Shown here piece by piece: positions 25,418 to 61,693 of a stretch of 64,000 nt of DNA. The translations under genes were made by a program, and so were the position numbers. The DNA comes from Myxococcota bacterium. Its GTDB lineage: Bacteria; Myxococcota_A; UBA796; CAJQPC01. Position 1 is the stretch's first letter. Every line of letters begins with the position of its first letter. Location: positions 1-64,000 of the forward strand of contig JAZAMN010000054.1 of NCBI GenBank assembly GCA_036229005.1. Direction: 5' to 3'. The notes under the pieces are model-generated. The model searched no databases. It saw only the letters and a program-made list of their open reading frames with translations, and was not told where the DNA came from.

Positions 25418-28400
25418 ATGCTGAACCGGCCGCTGCTGTCCCGTGCCCTGCTCATCGCCCTCTTCTCCGCCCCGATGGTGGTGGCCGTCACCGACTCGGC
25501 CCCCGCGGCGGCCCAGGGTGCCTCGCTGTTCGCCAACAGCAGCGGGATGGTTCACCTGCTCTCCCCAAGCGCGGTTGTTGGGGACGGCAGCTCCACCGCC
25601 ACCCTCTTCCTCCTCGCCCTGAACCCGGATGGCAGCCCCATGACCGGCCTCAAGGGGCGGATCGGCGCGGACCAGGGCGGCACCTCCGATCTCAAGGATC
25701 AGGGCAACGGGCTGTACAGCTTCGACTACACGCCCCCGATGGTGAGCGCCGCGACCAAGGTCAGCTTCTCGCTCAAGGCCAAGACCGCTGCCAAGGTCAG
25801 CATGGACAAGGACTTCGCCCTCTGGGTGAACCCGCCCCTGCCCGCGCAGCTCACTGTCAGCTCCAGCCCCACCGAGCTGGTGCTGGGTCAGGACCAGGGC
25901 GCCGCTCTGAACATCCGCCTGACCGGCCCCAATGGCGAGACCGCGGCGGACGGCGGCCAGCTCCTGGTCAACACCGAGTACGGCAGCGTGGAGTCCCTGA
26001 CCTACCTGGGCGGCGGCGCCTGGACCGCCCGCTACGTGCCCAAGGCGGTCAACTACCCGCACCTGGACGTGGTGACCTTCGCCGACGCCCGCGACCCCTC
26101 CAAGGTGTACGGCACCCACGTGGTCTCGATGGTGGGCAAGACCAACTTCCCCATCTCTGATGCCACCCCCAACAGCACCGTGATGCTGCGCATCGGGGAG
26201 CGCGACTTTGGCCCCTACCAGGCCGACACCCAGGGCAAGGTCAGCATCCCCGTGACCGTGCCCCCGGGCATCCCCACGGCCACCCGCATCACCATAGTCA
26301 ATGGCGAGCAGCGGCAGGAGCCCTTTGACCTCCAGCTCCCCAAGACCCGCCGCCTGGCGCTCTTCCCCATGGCCACGGTCCCCGGCGATGGCGAGACCAG
26401 CGTCCCTGTGCGGATCGCGGTCCGCACCCCCGAGGGCAAGGCTGACGGCGGCGCAAAGGTCAGCCTCTCCTCCACCTCCGGCAAGGTCTCCCAGCCGGTG
26501 CACGAGGGGAACGGCATCTACCGCGCCGACTTCACCCCCTCCCGCAGCGCCGCGGGGGAGACGGTCACCCTGAGCGCATCGGTCGCCGGCGAGGCCAGCA
26601 AGTCCGACCTCCAGGTCCAGGTCGCGCCCGCGCTGCCCAACCAGCTCAAGCTCACCGCCGAGCCCACCCAGCTCAGCGCTGGCGCCACCGGCTTCAAGGT
26701 CTACGCCAAGCTCACCGACCCGGCGGGCATCGGCATCGAGGGCGCCGCTCCCGCGTTCGTGGTGGCCGGCGCCAAGGCCAGCGGGGCCCCCCGCGACCTC
26801 AAGTCGGGCGACTACCAGTCCAGCTTCAGCACCACGGGGGCCGACTCTGTGCTGGTGACTGCCCTGGCCCTCGGCGCGCCCTCGGGCAACCCCATGTCTC
26901 GCGTGGTGGTGCTGCCCTCCTCCGAGCGCGTCACCAACGATGGCCGCAGCACCGTGGTCGTCTCCGTGCTGAGCGTCGACCAGTTCGGCTACCCCGTTCC
27001 CGACCAGCCGGTCACCCTGCGGGTCAACGCCGGCGACGGCCGCCTCCCCTCCGAGGTGCGCACCGACGCCCGCGGCCTGGCCACCGTGACCTACGCCGCT
27101 GGCAGGACCGCCGGCCCCGTGGACATCGAGGCCAAGTCCGGCGGCCTCTACGGCTCCGCCACCCTGCTCCAGGTCCCCGCCAGCGTGGACATCGACCTGC
27201 CTGCCAGTGGCAGCGCCAGCGTCGTTTCCCAGGACGAGCGCCTGGCCCGCCTGGTCCAGACCGTGCTCATCCCGCGGGAGGGCGCCTCTGGCGTCGCCCT
27301 GGCGACCATGGATGACACCTCCGGCACCGTCGGCCCCGTCACCACCCTCGAGGTGGCCGCCAGCCCCGCCGAGGTCGCACCGGGCGGCAGCGTGACCATC
27401 AACATCACCGCCCGCGACCAGCAGGGCCGCGCGGTCGCCGACGAGGACCTCAAGGTGCTCGCTACCGGCGGCGTGATGTCCGCAGTCCAGAAGCGCGGCG
27501 GCGGCAGCTACAGCGCCACCCTGACGGTCAACGCGGACGCCAGCGGCGACGCGATGGTCGTGGTCACCAGCGCGAACGGCAAGGTCAGCCAGGCCCTGCC
27601 GGTCCCCATCGCCGCCAACCTCTGGGGCAGCGCCCCCGAGGCCGCCGTCGTGGAGAACACCACCCCTGAAGGCCCCGCTGGCGCGGCACCGGAGACCACC
27701 CCGGTCGCCCCCCTGCCCCCTCCCCCGGAGCCCCCCACCGCCCCCAAGGCCGAGGGTGAGTTCCCCAACGGGCGCGTGCGGGTAGCCGGCGTGTTCGGGT
27801 CCTACGACTACCGCCAGGCCCCCACCGAGAACCCCAGCGCGCTGTGGAACGACGCGGTCAACGTCGCCACCGGCATCGCGGGCTTCGAGGTCGACGGCTA
27901 CGGCTACCTGCCCAAGCTCCCCTACCTGGGCGCCGAGGCGCAGTTCCGCATGGGCCTCTACAGCCTGGTCTGGCCGGGCACGAGCGAGGAGCAGGCCATC
28001 GGTGACCAGGTCCCCCGCCTGAACGTCAGCGTCCTGGGCCGCCTCCCCTTCCAGGTGGGCGACAACCAGCTCCACGTGGGCGCGCGCGCCGGGTACCTCT
28101 ACGGTGACTTCATCACCTACCAGCAGGGAGCCACCGAGACCCAGCTCAACTACGACTCCGTGGGCCTGCCTGGCGGCTGGACCTTGGGCGGTGAGCTCGG
28201 CGCTCAGTTCAGCCAGCGCGCGCACATGCGGGCCGTCTACACAGCGGGCTTCAACCAGGTGAACCTCTACGACCACAGCGTCATGGTGGACCTGGGCGTG
28301 CGCCCCTCCCTGGACCTGCCTCTGTCCCTGGTCGGCAGCTTCCAGTACACCGCCCGCGACATCGAGGTCGTGACTGCCGGCGACGGCAGCAGCACCCTGG

Positions 28401-28459
28401 TCGGCACCCTCGAAGACACCCAGCTTCTGGGCACCGTGGGCGTCGCCTACGAGTTCTGA
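25418..28459 (+). CDS. Ig-like (Big_1/invasin-type) repeat surface protein with C-terminal beta-barrel
   Basis: Signal peptide. Repeated DG..T / GNG.Y.A.Y/F.P / D..G..V Ig motifs. Pro-rich linker, then amphipathic strands ending GVAYEF. Confidence 0.78.
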   Translation: MLNRPLLSRALLIALFSAPMVVAVTDSAPAAAQGASLFANSSGMVHLLSPSAVVGDGSSTATLFLLALNPDGSPMTGLKGRIGADQGGTSDLKDQGNGLYSFDYTPPMVSAATKVSFSLKAKTAAKVSMDKDFALWVNPPLPAQLTVSSSPTELVLGQDQGAALNIRLTGPNGETAADGGQLLVNTEYGSVESLTYLGGGAWTARYVPKAVNYPHLDVVTFADARDPSKVYGTHVVSMVGKTNFPISDATPNSTVMLRIGERDFGPYQADTQGKVSIPVTVPPGIPTATRITIVNGEQRQEPFDLQLPKTRRLALFPMATVPGDGETSVPVRIAVRTPEGKADGGAKVSLSSTSGKVSQPVHEGNGIYRADFTPSRSAAGETVTLSASVAGEASKSDLQVQVAPALPNQLKLTAEPTQLSAGATGFKVYAKLTDPAGIGIEGAAPAFVVAGAKASGAPRDLKSGDYQSSFSTTGADSVLVTALALGAPSGNPMSRVVVLPSSERVTNDGRSTVVVSVLSVDQFGYPVPDQPVTLRVNAGDGRLPSEVRTDARGLATVTYAAGRTAGPVDIEAKSGGLYGSATLLQVPASVDIDLPASGSASVVSQDERLARLVQTVLIPREGASGVALATMDDTSGTVGPVTTLEVAASPAEVAPGGSVTINITARDQQGRAVADEDLKVLATGGVMSAVQKRGGGSYSATLTVNADASGDAMVVVTSANGKVSQALPVPIAANLWGSAPEAAVVENTTPEGPAGAAPETTPVAPLPPPPEPPTAPKAEGEFPNGRVRVAGVFGSYDYRQAPTENPSALWNDAVNVATGIAGFEVDGYGYLPKLPYLGAEAQFRMGLYSLVWPGTSEEQAIGDQVPRLNVSVLGRLPFQVGDNQLHVGARAGYLYGDFITYQQGATETQLNYDSVGLPGGWTLGGELGAQFSQRAHMRAVYTAGFNQVNLYDHSVMVDLGVRPSLDLPLSLVGSFQYTARDIEVVTAGDGSSTLVGTLEDTQLLGTVGVAYEF

Positions 28460-29123
28460 GCCGGGGCTCAGGTGGGGCGCGAGCCCCACTCCCACCCTCA
28501 CCACCGCCGGGGTTTCGGCGCGCAGACCTGCGCCCGAAACCCGGGAGTTCGGGCGGCCGAGGCGGTCGGTTCAAGCCAAAGCAGCGGCGACGCCGCGCCG
28601 ACGCGAAGGCCCCTGCGCCTCGACCCCGTCCGACCGAACTCCCGGCTGGGGGTGGCCCCGGCTCCGCCGGGGCTCAGGGGGGTCGCGCACGCCCCCACCC
28701 CACTCCCCCCTCACCACCGCCGAGGTCTCGGTGCGCAAACCTGCGCCCGAGACCCGGGAGTTCGGGCGGCCGAGGCGGTCGGTTCAAGCCAAAGAAGCGG
28801 CAAAGCCGCGCCGACGCGCAGGACCGAACGCCTCGCACCCGTCCGACCGAACTCCCCCGCGGGGGGTGGCCCCCGCTCCGCCGGGGCTCAGGGGGGTCGC
28901 GAGACCCCCATAGAAAACCGGGGTTGCTGCGCGCAAACCTGCGCGCGCAGCCGGCTCGGAGGGGGGCCGGGAGCTTCCCGACAAAGCCAAAGCGGGAGTC
29001 GGCCCTGGCCGGCTCCCCGACGCGCCGAGGGAAGCTTCCGCTCATGTCCCCCCGGAGAGCCCGCGGGGGGTGGGCCCAGCTTGACTGGGCCTCAGGGGGG
29101 TCGCGAGACCCCCATACAAAAAA
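28460..29123 (+). repeat. Tandem array of three ~205-215 bp structured palindromic units (A, A, B)
   Basis: Marker gccggggctcagg at 28460, 28666 and 28880. Each unit holds gcgcaNacctgcgc, aagccaaag and ccgacgcg. Confidence 0.9.
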
Positions 29124-29852
29124 CTACAACCGCTCGATCACGACCTTCTTGAGCACCACATCCGTCACGGGCTTGTCCCCGGGGCCGCGGTCCACGTGGG
29201 TGATCTCCTTCACCTTGCCCACCTCTTCGCACTGGCCGAAGATGGTGTGCCGACCGGTCAGGTGCGGCGTGGGCGCCTCGGTGATGAAGAACTGCGAGCC
29301 GTTGGTGTTGGGCCCCGCGTTGGCCATCGCCAGCACGCCGGGCTTGTCGAAGGCGCGGTCGCTGTCCAGCTCGTCCTCGAACTTGTAGCCGGGACCGCCG
29401 GTGCCCGTGCCCAGGGGGTCGCCGCCCTGGATCATGAAGCCGGGGATGACCCGGTGGAAGGTGGTGCCGTCGTAGAGCGGCCCGTCCACCGTCTGGCCGG
29501 TGCGGGGGTGGGTCCAGGTCCGGGAGCCCTCGGCGAGCTGCACAAAGTTCAACACCGTCTTGGGCGCATCCTCCGGGAAGAGCTCGCAGTGGATGTCACC
29601 CAGGGAGGTCTTGAAGGTCGCTTTCAGCGGCTCACCGGGCTCCACACCGAGCTGGGACAGGGTGGCGGCCAGAGCCTGCGCTTCGACCTCCTCCGTCAGC
29701 GAGGCCACCCGGCTCTTGAGCGCCTCGTTCTCCCGCCGGGTGCGCTCGAGCTCCTCCTGGGTGGACTTGAGCTCGGACCGGGCGGAGTCGAGCTCCTCGA
29801 GCTGGGCGGCGCTGGGTCCGCAGGCGACAAGGGCCGCGAGCAGCATCAACAT
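29124..29852 (-). CDS. Cyclophilin-type PPIase lipoprotein with N-terminal coiled coil
   Basis: FHRVIPGFMIQGGDP, LAMANAGPNTNGSQFFIT, HTIFG. Lipobox LVAC. Confidence 0.95.
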   Translation of the reverse strand: MLMLLAALVACGPSAAQLEELDSARSELKSTQEELERTRRENEALKSRVASLTEEVEAQALAATLSQLGVEPGEPLKATFKTSLGDIHCELFPEDAPKTVLNFVQLAEGSRTWTHPRTGQTVDGPLYDGTTFHRVIPGFMIQGGDPLGTGTGGPGYKFEDELDSDRAFDKPGVLAMANAGPNTNGSQFFITEAPTPHLTGRHTIFGQCEEVGKVKEITHVDRGPGDKPVTDVVLKKVVIERL

Positions 29853-29960
29853 GGGACCTCCTGGGTTTCTGCTGCCGAACCTCACCCGATCCCCACCTCA
29901 GGTCAAGGGGACAGGGGTGCCCGGCCCGCTCCTTGTTAAGGATCTCCCTGGAGGTCCTTC

Positions 29961-53610: not shown

Positions 53611-53670
53611 ACGGGGGGTGATCCCGGCTCCGCCGGGGTTCAGGGGGGTCGCGAGACCCCCATAGAGAAA
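53611..53670 (+). repeat. Partial copy (3' hairpins) of the structured repeat
   Basis: ggggggtgatcccggctccgccggggttcaggggggtcgcgagacccccatagagaaa. Confidence 0.85.
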
Positions 53671-54620: not shown

Positions 54621-55292
54621 ATGACCAAGCCCCGCCGCAGCTTTCCCCCCGCCCCCACCCAAGCCCGTGCGCTGCTGATCAGCGCCCACCCCTTCACCGA
54701 CAGCTTCTCTCACGCTCTGGGGCTGGCCTGGGCAGAGGGCGCCCGCAGTCAGGGCGTGGAGGTCCAGGTGCTCCGCCTGGCCGAGCTGGACTTCGACCCG
54801 GCGCTCCACACCGCCTACCGCGAGGATCAGCCTCTGGAGCCCGACCTGGTGCAGGCCCGCGACGCCATCGCCCAGGCCGCGCACTTGAGCATCGCCACGC
54901 CGCTGTGGTGGAGCAGCGTGCCCGCCCAGCTCAAGGGCTTCTTTGACCGGGTGCTGCTGCCGGGCTGGGCCTTCCGCTACGAGAACGACCGGCCCGTGGG
55001 CGGCCTGAGCGGGCGCAGCGGCCGACTGCTGATGACCATGGACGCGCCCACCTGGTACGACAGCGCGCTGAACTTTGGCGCGGGCCGCCGACAGGTGGCG
55101 CAGGGGGTGATGCGCTTCTGCGGCATCAAGCCGACGCGGGTGAGCGCCTTCGGCGACGTCCGCATGTCCTCGCCGGCGCAGAGGGTGCAGATGTTGGAGA
55201 AGGCCCAGAGGGCGGGGGTTGAGGACGGGGCCTCGGTGCGCCAGAGGCTCCCCTCCCCTGCCCTTGAATCCGCCGGACGAGCCGCGAGCTGA
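54621..55292 (+). CDS. NAD(P)H-dependent oxidoreductase (flavodoxin-2/MdaB-like)
   Basis: HP...SFS, PLWWSSVPAQLKGFFDRV..PGWAF. Confidence 0.92.
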   Translation: MTKPRRSFPPAPTQARALLISAHPFTDSFSHALGLAWAEGARSQGVEVQVLRLAELDFDPALHTAYREDQPLEPDLVQARDAIAQAAHLSIATPLWWSSVPAQLKGFFDRVLLPGWAFRYENDRPVGGLSGRSGRLLMTMDAPTWYDSALNFGAGRRQVAQGVMRFCGIKPTRVSAFGDVRMSSPAQRVQMLEKAQRAGVEDGASVRQRLPSPALESAGRAAS

Positions 55293-60522: not shown

Positions 60523-60749
60523 GGGTCGCCGGGGGGTCGCAAGACCCCCATACAAAAACCTGGGCTGCTGCGCGCACACCTGCGCGCGCGGCCGGCTCGG
60601 AGGGGGGCCGGGAGCTGCCCGACAAAGCCAAAGCGGGAGTCGGCCTTGGCCGGCTTCCCGACGCGCCGAGGGCTGCTTCCGCTCCTGTCCCCCCGGAGAG
60701 CCCGCGGAGGGTGACCCCGGCTCCGCCGGGGTTCAGGGGGGCGCGAGAC
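60523..60749 (+). repeat. Type-B copy of the structured repeat
   Basis: Closely similar to 28890-29110 (gctcggaggggggccgggagct...gacaaagccaaagcgggagtcggcc...). Confidence 0.9.
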
Positions 60750-60809
60750 AGGCCCAGCGGGCGGGAATTGAGGCCGGGGCCGCGGTGCGCCAGAGGCTCC
60801 CCTCAGCTG
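60750..60809 (+). repeat. Degenerate direct repeat of 55201-55260
   Basis: 53/60 identical by manual ungapped alignment to the 3' part of the oxidoreductase gene. Confidence 0.85.
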
Positions 60810-60817
60810 TTCCCGCT

Positions 60818-60987
60818 CTGGAGGGCCTGCCGGGGGTGGGGCCCAAGCGGCGCAAGGCGCTGCTCACGCATTTGGGAACCTCAAGCGGGTGAAGGCGGTC
60901 AGCGCGGAGGAGATCGCGGAGGTCCCGGGGATAGGGACGGGGTCGGCGCAGAAGATCTGGGCGGCGCTGCAGGAGCCAGAGGGGTAA
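60818..60987 (+). pseudogene. uvrC: Frameshifted remnant of the UvrC C-terminal (HhH)2 domain
   Basis: LEGLPGVGPKRRKALLTH, then a 1-nt shift near 60871, then GNLKRVKAVSAEEIAEVPGIGTGSAQKIWAAL...TAA. Confidence 0.75.
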
Positions 60988-61003
60988 GGGGCGGCGCCCC
61001 GGT

Positions 61004-61269
61004 GGCTACGGGGGTTCAATGAGCGCAGGGGGGCGGCTAGTGGCTTTCAATGAGCGCCTCGCTGAGGCTACGGGTGCTCGGTGAGCGCTTCTCCCTGAAT
61101 CTTGGGCCCCAGGAGCGGAATCTGGGCCGTTTTGAACCCCAATTGGGGCCGATCGGGGGCTCTGGGCGCCAGATCGGTGGGCGGATCGCACACCGGTGGG
61201 GCGTAGCCTCGAAGGACCGCTCATTCAGAGGACGTAGCCGCCGGGTTCGCTCATTCGGCCGGCGTAGCC
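61004..61269. repeat. Mirror-symmetric array of six 22-bp sites
   Basis: GGCTA-N11-TGAGCG at 61004, 61035 and 61066. Inverted copies at 61187, 61218 and 61248. Confidence 0.85.
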
Positions 61270-61307
61270 GCCAGTCCCAGGGCCTCTCCATCCTCCCGAG
61301 CCAGCCA

Positions 61308-61693
61308 GGCGCGCACACGTGCGCGCGCGGCCGGGAGTTCGGGCGGCCGAGGCGTTCGGCTCAAGCCAAAGAAGCGGCGAAGCCGCGCCGACGCGCAGGG
61401 CCGAATGCCTCGCACCCGTCCGACCGAACTCCCCGCGGGGGGTGATCCCGGTCTGCCGGGGTTCAGGGGCGCGAGCCCACATCCCCTCTCACCACAGGCG
61501 AGGCTTCGGTGCGCAAACCTGCGCCCGAAACCCGGGAGTTCGGGCGGCCGAGGCGTTCGGCTCAAGCCAAAGAAGCGGCGCAGCCGCGCCGACGCGCAGG
61601 GCCGAATGCCTCGCACCCGTCCGACCGAACTCCCCGCGGGGGGTGACCCCGGCCCCGCCGGGGTTCAGGGGGGTCGCGAGACCCCCATAAAAA
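61308..61693 (+). repeat. Two tandem type-A structured repeat units
   Basis: ccgggagttcgggcggccgaggcg...ccgaccgaactcccc at 61331 and 61532. Confidence 0.9.

Follow-up and report, generated by a model that had tools for sequence, protein, structure and literature searches.

A structured, REP/BIME-like candidate single-stranded DNA element in one genus of Myxococcota

Introduction

Four genomes of one genus of Myxococcota carry a family of structured repeats whose stems covary around an internal loop (CAAAG opposite CGAC) that is nearly invariant. Judged by the orthologous sites in relatives, the element is mobile, and one of its strands probably acts as single-stranded DNA (ssDNA). The fuller reading, which we regard as about evenly balanced between right and wrong, is that of a non-coding, non-autonomous, REP/BIME-like ssDNA element moved in trans by a candidate HUH (tyrosine) nuclease. 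The family is apparently undescribed: full-text literature searches (supplements and most subscription papers lay outside their scope) returned no description of it.

The window, by which we mean the whole stretch of 64,000 nucleotides analysed here, is G000:C54:1-64000, where G000 denotes the window's genome (GCA_036229005.1; 6.4 Mb, 70% GC, 94% complete) and G001, G002 and G003 denote three genomes of the same genus. The sequencing runs containing this stretch are seawater or marine metagenomes, with no RNA run among them, and two of these runs have contigs ~99% identical to the window. An earlier note on the same DNA had reported a family of same-strand structured repeats and had offered two readings, a structured noncoding RNA or ribozyme and a REPIN/BIME-like substrate of an HUH enzyme, of which the former proves to be the weaker.

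Repeat units in the window

The features of the window are as follows.

25418..28459, + strand: left neighbour, a bacterial Ig-like domain protein
28460..28489, + strand: leading partial terminal module, beginning immediately 3′ of the upstream gene's stop codon
28485..28697, + strand: unit A1, with a bulged first hairpin (28510-28542), a long stem with the core loop, a bulged-T hairpin and a degenerate last hairpin
28573..28605, + strand: core of A1, CAAAG opposite CGAC, with an inner hairpin
28698..28912, + strand: unit A2, complete, with a GCGA loop in its final G-tract hairpin
28786..28818, + strand: core of A2
28913..29123, + strand: unit B1, whose outer stem has a GGA/GGA internal loop and whose A-rich tail abuts the convergent gene's stop codon (29124-29126)
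28984..29024, + strand: core of B1, with a long inner hairpin
29124..29885, − strand: right neighbour, a cyclophilin-type PPIase
53612..53669, + strand: solo terminal module of two hairpins and no core, which provides the last codons and TGA stop of a − strand gene (LysR-like by sequence inspection)
60523..60749, + strand: unit B2, beginning immediately 3′ of a stop codon, with a leading terminal hairpin and a truncated last hairpin (core 60625-60665)
60750..61332, + strand: patchwork assembled from copied host DNA, with an element cluster on either side
61308..61475, + strand: unit A3, with a B-type first hairpin (degenerate, starting at 61308), an A-type stem and a truncated last hairpin (core 61363-61395)
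61476..61693, + strand: unit A4, complete (core 61564-61596), its tail abutting the convergent gene's stop codon

The repeat family is real. Six cores of the form AAGCCAAAG-N-CCGACGCG lie at 28573, 28786, 28984, 60625, 61363 and 61564, all on the + strand, and the core pattern occurs in 0 of 100 dinucleotide shuffles of the window. The helix order claimed in the earlier note and the four compensatory changes that it listed are present in the sequence. Its count of six full units and one partial unit holds for the cores and for the solo module at 53612, but a partial terminal module also opens both the array at 28460 and the unit at 60523, so that n units carry n + 1 terminal modules, and two of the units called full have a truncated last hairpin (60523) or a degenerate first hairpin (61308). 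The junction words described as invariant are so inside the window; genome-wide, however, AAGCCCAAG is found twice and CCGATGTG once, and the longer words represent one of several junction types. The all-plus orientation holds in the window but is local, as the terminal-module pattern has six forward and six reverse matches in G000; one inverted pair lies on contig C57.

Within the patchwork, 60750-60809 matches 55201-55260 at 88%, 60818-60984, which is frameshifted, matches the 3′ end of a gene on C16 (uvrC-like by sequence inspection) at 90%, and 61001-61332 matches a 31-bp array and its flank on C16 at 83%. G000:C4:162956-163702 is built likewise, with 82–90% copies of gene 3′ ends and 31-bp arrays stitched between element copies.

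Architecture of the family

A G000 unit runs from a one-base-bulged first hairpin through a long core-enclosing stem, a bulged-T hairpin between two G-tracts and a GCGA-loop hairpin to an A-rich tail. Such units form head-to-tail arrays that open and close with a terminal module. BLAST and motif scans, carrying out the genome-wide search that had been proposed, found further copies on other contigs of G000: element copies lie on six contigs (C2, C4, C54, C57, C62 and C74), and three contigs (C52, C54 and C57) bear solo terminal modules. A third subtype, with another junction and the same terminal grammar, was found on C12 and C49 by a stem-aware scan. The G000 total is 17 cores in 14 clusters, the label by which element loci are given here, solo modules included. 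Modules are shuffled between subtypes: A-type stems can carry B-type first hairpins, and B-type stems can carry either inner hairpin and either third hairpin.

In G001–G003 the unit is ~115–120 nt long and comprises an outer stem, a GNA/GNA internal loop, an inner stem, the core, one terminal hairpin and an A-rich spacer. Covariance model R2 has 14 matches in G001, 16 in G002 and 6 in G003, partial copies counted, and the same junction is combined with new stems in G001 and G003. Across the genus, CAAAG persists in 32 of 40 units and the facing GAC in 39 of 40; their ends pair and an internal loop remains.

Several variants were observed. On G002:C1 (L186:1030-1705) a run of several GNA-loop structured repeats closes with a four-copy tandem array of element 45-mers that lack the core, so that the core is dispensable for local amplification. 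At L193:250-480 (G001:C18) and L150, a nested, branched form of the element in G001 stands against a type I core in a metagenome contig that shares its left flank, so that variants replace each other at one site.

G000 also contains at least two further families of 150–250 nt long-stem tandem repeats, with a similar succession of hairpin, G-tract, hairpin and A-rich tail and with other junctions. Their contigs, in which many of them lie at the ends, are as follows.

C16, C17, C26, C35, C41, C43, C44, C46, C47, C61, C65, C68, C70, C71, C73: further long-stem families

Another tandem structured repeat, of ~175 nt, lies at the ends of C12, C23 and C62 and breaks the assembly. A long hairpin element of ~70 nt is found at the start of C51, at the end of C21 and at C52:149790, and at two of these sites precedes genes that are four-helix-bundle-like by inspection. 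A CAAAG–CGAC look-alike before four-helix-bundle genes was rejected, its motif sitting in a terminal loop.

Covariation and the nature of the folded strand

Covariation in the stems, as read from the alignments, is strong, though short of a formal test. In an alignment of 17 of 23 cores, the six A-type cores being omitted for their different register, both partners vary at 12 of 18 pairs, and pairing is kept in 89% of cells, a share that drops to 37–50% once the partners are slid. The helix adjoining the core has such two-sided changes at 10 of its 11 pairs. The corresponding figures are 18 of 29 pairs in 12 full units of G001–G003 and 21 of 29 in 23 model-fitted units, the last leaning towards the model; the structures were set by hand from the same sequences, and as the copies are kin these pair counts, like the loop counts below, are not independent events. 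The proposal in the earlier note of selection on a one-strand fold is supported by the strong covariation and by the folding of the named strand, which is better than that of its complement in 39 of 40 units under RNA parameters and in 33 of the 40 under DNA parameters. Against shuffles, units of the window give z values of −4.4 and −3.2 on the + strand and −1.6 on the − strand.

The loops carry information on the nature of the folded molecule. Among 40 inner loops, 16 have the form c(GNA)g and 14 the form c(GNNA)g, together 30, against background rates of 2–3% (23 of 1044 hairpins with triloops and 26 of 999 with tetraloops), and GGA or GAA closes 18 of 25 terminal hairpins in G001–G003; the first and third G000 hairpins are without GNA loops on the folded strand. 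Only three of the 14 tetraloops are GNRA, 11 have a pyrimidine at position 3 and none is UUCG. The GCGA and GCAA loops that had been singled out are GNRA as described, but they fit c(GNNA)g, a DNA motif, as well, and among the other loops GNRA is in the minority. In the accessible text of PMC13037366, GCGNAGC and GCGNNAGC mini-hairpins are described as extraordinarily stable as DNA and much less so as RNA, and such mini-hairpins are placed at ssDNA priming sites. By heuristic gene calls at 25 loci, the folded strand is antisense to the downstream neighbour at 13 and sense at 12, and antisense to both neighbours at 7. On the grounds of these DNA-stable loop types and the roughly equal orientations, we consider that the folded strand probably acts as ssDNA rather than RNA, while the G–T pairs that are frequent in the element stems keep RNA open.

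A structured RNA family with its own internal transcription signals that is copied through RNA, possibly a ribozyme or a retro-mobilised mini-element, is in our judgement unlikely. Such a family would be expected to fold better as RNA, as the element does (mean z −3.7 with RNA parameters and −2.5 with DNA parameters), its many G–U pairs would be in place, and head-to-tail arrays with n + 1 ends would suit a circular RNA intermediate. Tandem G–A pairs and GNA/GNA internal loops are also known as RNA motifs. The dominance of triloops and the 11 of 14 tetraloops with a pyrimidine at position 3 argue the other way, as do the lack of a fixed relation of the folded strand to host transcription and the absence of both a sigma-70 promoter and a + strand terminator at 28350-29250. 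An Rfam match, which would have removed the novelty, was found at gathering score neither in the window nor at 8 further loci (best E 0.049, at 28460-29123); a short-motif search found hammerhead, twister and HDV cores in 0 of 46 sequences, and no RVT_1 domain scores above cut-off in G000–G003. The available text of PMC5737381 holds that ssDNA and RNA motifs are hard to separate computationally from sequence, a further point on the side of RNA.

Mobility and insertion sites

That the element is mobile is read from sites which relatives hold empty. In all three other genomes of the genus the 28460-29123 site has both genes and, instead of the element, a short bidirectional terminator. Four other copies, in G001 and G002, have six orthologous sites in close relatives, all of them empty; two further look-ups gave no orthologue. 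Only 1 of 26 loci in G001–G003 has a flank that adjoins a G000 copy. Array content varies between strains, since a contig of run X2 (~99% identical) follows the left gene to 28487 and then joins a B-type head; run X3 retains the A1 head. Some copies are old, as two sites are common to different species. Neither a target duplication nor a common target word is visible at the six empty sites, in species ~80–89% identical with diverged spacers. Codon skew in G000 is too noisy for the replichore assignment.

Element ends lie close to gene ends. Where the downstream gene is convergent (13 loci), its stop codon falls −10 to +6 nt from the element 3′ end in 11 cases, and six G000 sites likewise have a stop codon abutting the element end. 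Ends that abut stop codons, and an array that takes a terminator's place, are what a 3′-UTR regulator, terminator or mRNA stabiliser of the neighbours would produce; we nevertheless hold such a role to be very improbable, given that 7 of 25 loci place the folded strand antisense to the genes on either side and other copies lie in divergent spacers, that the folded strand has an A-rich tail, with the T-run of the other strand preceding the hairpin, and that the neighbour genes are functionally unrelated.

The same sites bear on a domesticated host DNA signal, that is, a binding or loading site on ssDNA or a cruciform which is maintained by host selection and spreads slowly by recombination or gene conversion. 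Positions are mostly unconserved between species, the element has displaced a conserved terminator and other genera are without a credible copy, all of which make this reading quite improbable, even though the core loop is kept in four species while the stems are rewritten, copy numbers are low and similar (6–17) and modules are shuffled between subtypes, as such a signal would allow.

Distribution

In the scans made, the family is confined to one genus, with no credible copy elsewhere as far as sequence models and patterns can tell. Model R2 has no match in 18 other genomes of the taxonomic family. Outside the genus, covariance model R1 gave six weak matches in 57 genomes and R2 two in 124, and on inspection the architecture was absent from all of these. 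At the phylum level model R3 gave 0 of 151 under strict filters and with no positive control, and this null therefore shows little. A pattern scan of genome contigs gave 41 matches, of which four are true copies, identical to G001/G003 copies, and the remaining 37 are without the fold. The corresponding scan of metagenome contigs gave ten matches, nine of them true and all of the same-genus type. Viral contigs contained no copy in five scans, the 14 matches of one such scan being without the fold, and BLAST against plasmids gave short chance matches only.

The lack of matches in viral contigs and plasmids, together with the lack of a Rep or Mob gene beside copies, makes it rather unlikely that the element is a relic single-strand origin or priming signal of a rolling-circle plasmid or phage, spread by Rep, relaxase or host repair and not by RAYT. 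A relic of this kind would agree with the marking of phage and plasmid priming sites by GNA mini-hairpins (in the accessible text of PMC13037366), with the statement in the available text of PMC5737381 that ssDNA may be the active form of long structured motifs in plasmids and with the 3′ grammar shared by the other long-stem and G-tract families of G000.

Search for an enzyme and the 31-bp repeat

Pfam Y1_Tnp and RVT_1 have no match above cut-off in G000–G003, one sub-threshold RVT_1 fragment lying at a G003 contig end, and PF01797 (IS200/IS605 TnpA) was not found in any of the four genomes, which are 75–95% complete. No nuclease, transposase, relaxase, Rep, Mob or recombinase gene recurs beside any copy, and the genes adjoining copies are functionally unrelated. 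The Y1/RAYT transposase or reverse transcriptase flanked by the unit, for which a search had been recommended, was found beside no copy. HUH enzymes missed by Pfam do appear to exist in G000, since a search with NF047646 found five RAYT-like genes (C27:37212-38135, C21:19783-20646, C32:32305-33330, C24:38092-39177 and C52:40971-41768) that score below cut-off and whose NHVH/NHIH and Y-x-x-x-NP motifs resemble those of subclass 2.1 in the text of PMC6006769. Four of them adjoin 31-bp arrays and the fifth adjoins a one-unit remnant; no element lies within ~1.5 kb of the RAYT-like genes (five in G000, six in G001/G002). Seven copies lie at contig ends, and a cognate gene may for this reason be unassembled; arrays reach the end of C54, the start of C62 and the end of C74.

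The 31-bp arrays occur at 61001-61270 of the window and in 112 TRF clusters in G000; they are inverted and of several sequence subtypes, four or five of which adjoin their own RAYT-like gene. Of the 14 G000 element clusters, five abut or include a 31-bp array, as do 35 of 2000 random windows; the excess is overstated, since most of the random windows fall in coding DNA. On C57 an A-type stem is split by one such array. The cluster overlap, the split stem and the patchworks between elements indicate that both repeat systems meet at the same places; a shared ssDNA processing of element and 31-bp repeat fits this picture, though it is not shown. Fragments of multi-copy elements, IS110-like to judge by a C-terminal motif, lie at the G000 contig ends of C15, C19, C21, C27, C29 and C64, and on C27 one of them interrupts a 31-bp array adjoining a RAYT-like gene.

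Three candidate sources of the enzyme were rejected. In G002 and G003, IS91-like fragments occur with no element at their flanks. The accessory gene G000:C2:83083-83979, PD-(D/E)XK-like from a motif seen by eye and located beside the four-unit C2 array, is absent from G001–G003; it has no Pfam or NCBIfam match and one relative in 21 genomes of the taxonomic family (G015), which is without the element. The RAYT-like gene G000:C57:36573-37361 (L241:3574-4362) has no HUH/tyrosine motif and does not track the element, being present in 17 of the 21 family genomes. It is single-copy, encodes a C-terminal HTH, matches RAYT-like proteins weakly in BLASTP (E 0.034) and is possibly a domesticated inactive RAYT relative.

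Comparison with known systems

Compared by the text of PMC3733652 and PMC6006769, outside which lie the consensus sequences given only in figures, the element and the REP/BIME/REPIN repeats are alike in being non-coding, intergenic, lineage-specific and often <20 bp from gene 3′ ends, in their imperfect bulged hairpins and mosaic clusters and in the presence of RAYT-like genes in the genome; stop codons near REP 3′ ends are also described (PMC3733652). They differ in size, the element having 115–215 nt and three to four helical modules and a REP being a hairpin of 20–65 nt, and in form, the element having a conserved internal loop and head-to-tail arrays whereas REPINs are inverted dimers. The element is without a conserved GTAG/GTGG foot (by inspection of alignments A2, A4 and A5) and without a flanked RAYT gene, and it has only 6–17 copies per genome. 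For CGTC-tagged REPs, as described in the text of PMC3733652, a dedicated transposase likewise was not found, and the terminal hairpin of G001–G003 begins with CGTC. The tag of those REPs is, however, unpaired and is followed by an 8–9 bp stem and a CCA tail, whereas in the element GTC pairs with GAC in 21–23 of 23 cases, the G000 terminal module has no tag and a long core-loop stem is attached. The REPIN/BIME-like reading therefore stands for the behaviour of the element (dispersed, lineage-specific, abutting stop codons) but not for the defining REP features or an adjacent HUH gene.

With MITEs and IS200/IS605-derived miniature elements the element shares size, lack of coding capacity, presence or absence among relatives and a strong fold. 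Examples of such miniature elements are RUP, ERIC, Correia, bcr1 and PATEs. Unlike a MITE, the element has no terminal inverted repeats and no target duplication that could be seen, its ends being direct repeats of one module, and no IS200/IS605 TnpA was found for it in the four genomes. A known REP or MITE, which the earlier note had named as a possible end to its novelty, is accordingly not what the element is by its features.

The DUF1874, GEBRO, ARRPOF, PAGEV and attC motifs share with the element a fold of several covarying helices for which an ssDNA role is possible, and ssDNA folds beyond a simple hairpin are called rare in the available text of PMC5737381. Relative to the motifs described there, the element has no Rfam match and is chromosomal, dispersed, off plasmids and outside cassette spacers. 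An integron attC follows each cassette ORF of an array that comes with an integrase, whereas the element is dispersed among unrelated genes. Retron- or retrozyme-like elements need a reverse transcriptase, and none scores above cut-off in G000–G003. As for an IS110 bridge RNA, whose two loop strands would match the donor or target site, the loop strands gave scattered matches away from the element ends, and there is no recombinase neighbour.

Proposed mechanism and significance

In the reading that we prefer, of a REP/BIME-like ssDNA element moved in trans, one strand would fold when it is exposed in replication or repair. A protein would read the core loop and the terminal hairpin and nick near the terminal hairpin or the A-rich tail. 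A copy would then be joined into other spacers or beside an existing copy, the likely intermediate being circular or one-ended. We slightly favour an HUH-type enzyme acting in trans for the recognition, nicking and pasting. Neighbouring spacer DNA may then be lost until a stop codon halts the loss; erosion of this kind would explain both the abutting ends and the missing terminator.

A more radical reading is that the element is the equivalent, in natural ssDNA, of structured noncoding RNAs, with several helices and a conserved tertiary core, in which the CAAAG/CGAC loop is itself functional (in self-nicking, self-priming or ligand binding), and that it is one of a set of such folds sharing a terminal G-tract module in G000. 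A self-acting loop would explain spread with no cognate enzyme in sight, and we consider it improbable.

Should the element be only an orphan REP-like family, its significance would be modest and limited to one uncultured genus. To our knowledge, known ssDNA mobile repeats are simple hairpins; this family retains several helices and one loop over four species as its stems change, which suggests a recognition motif more complex than that of a REP. The units are short, synthesisable substrates for studying the protein that reads them, the use of non-cognate repeats by RAYTs and self-acting DNA folds. For the genomes that carry it, the element shows a route by which spacers and terminators at gene ends may be replaced.
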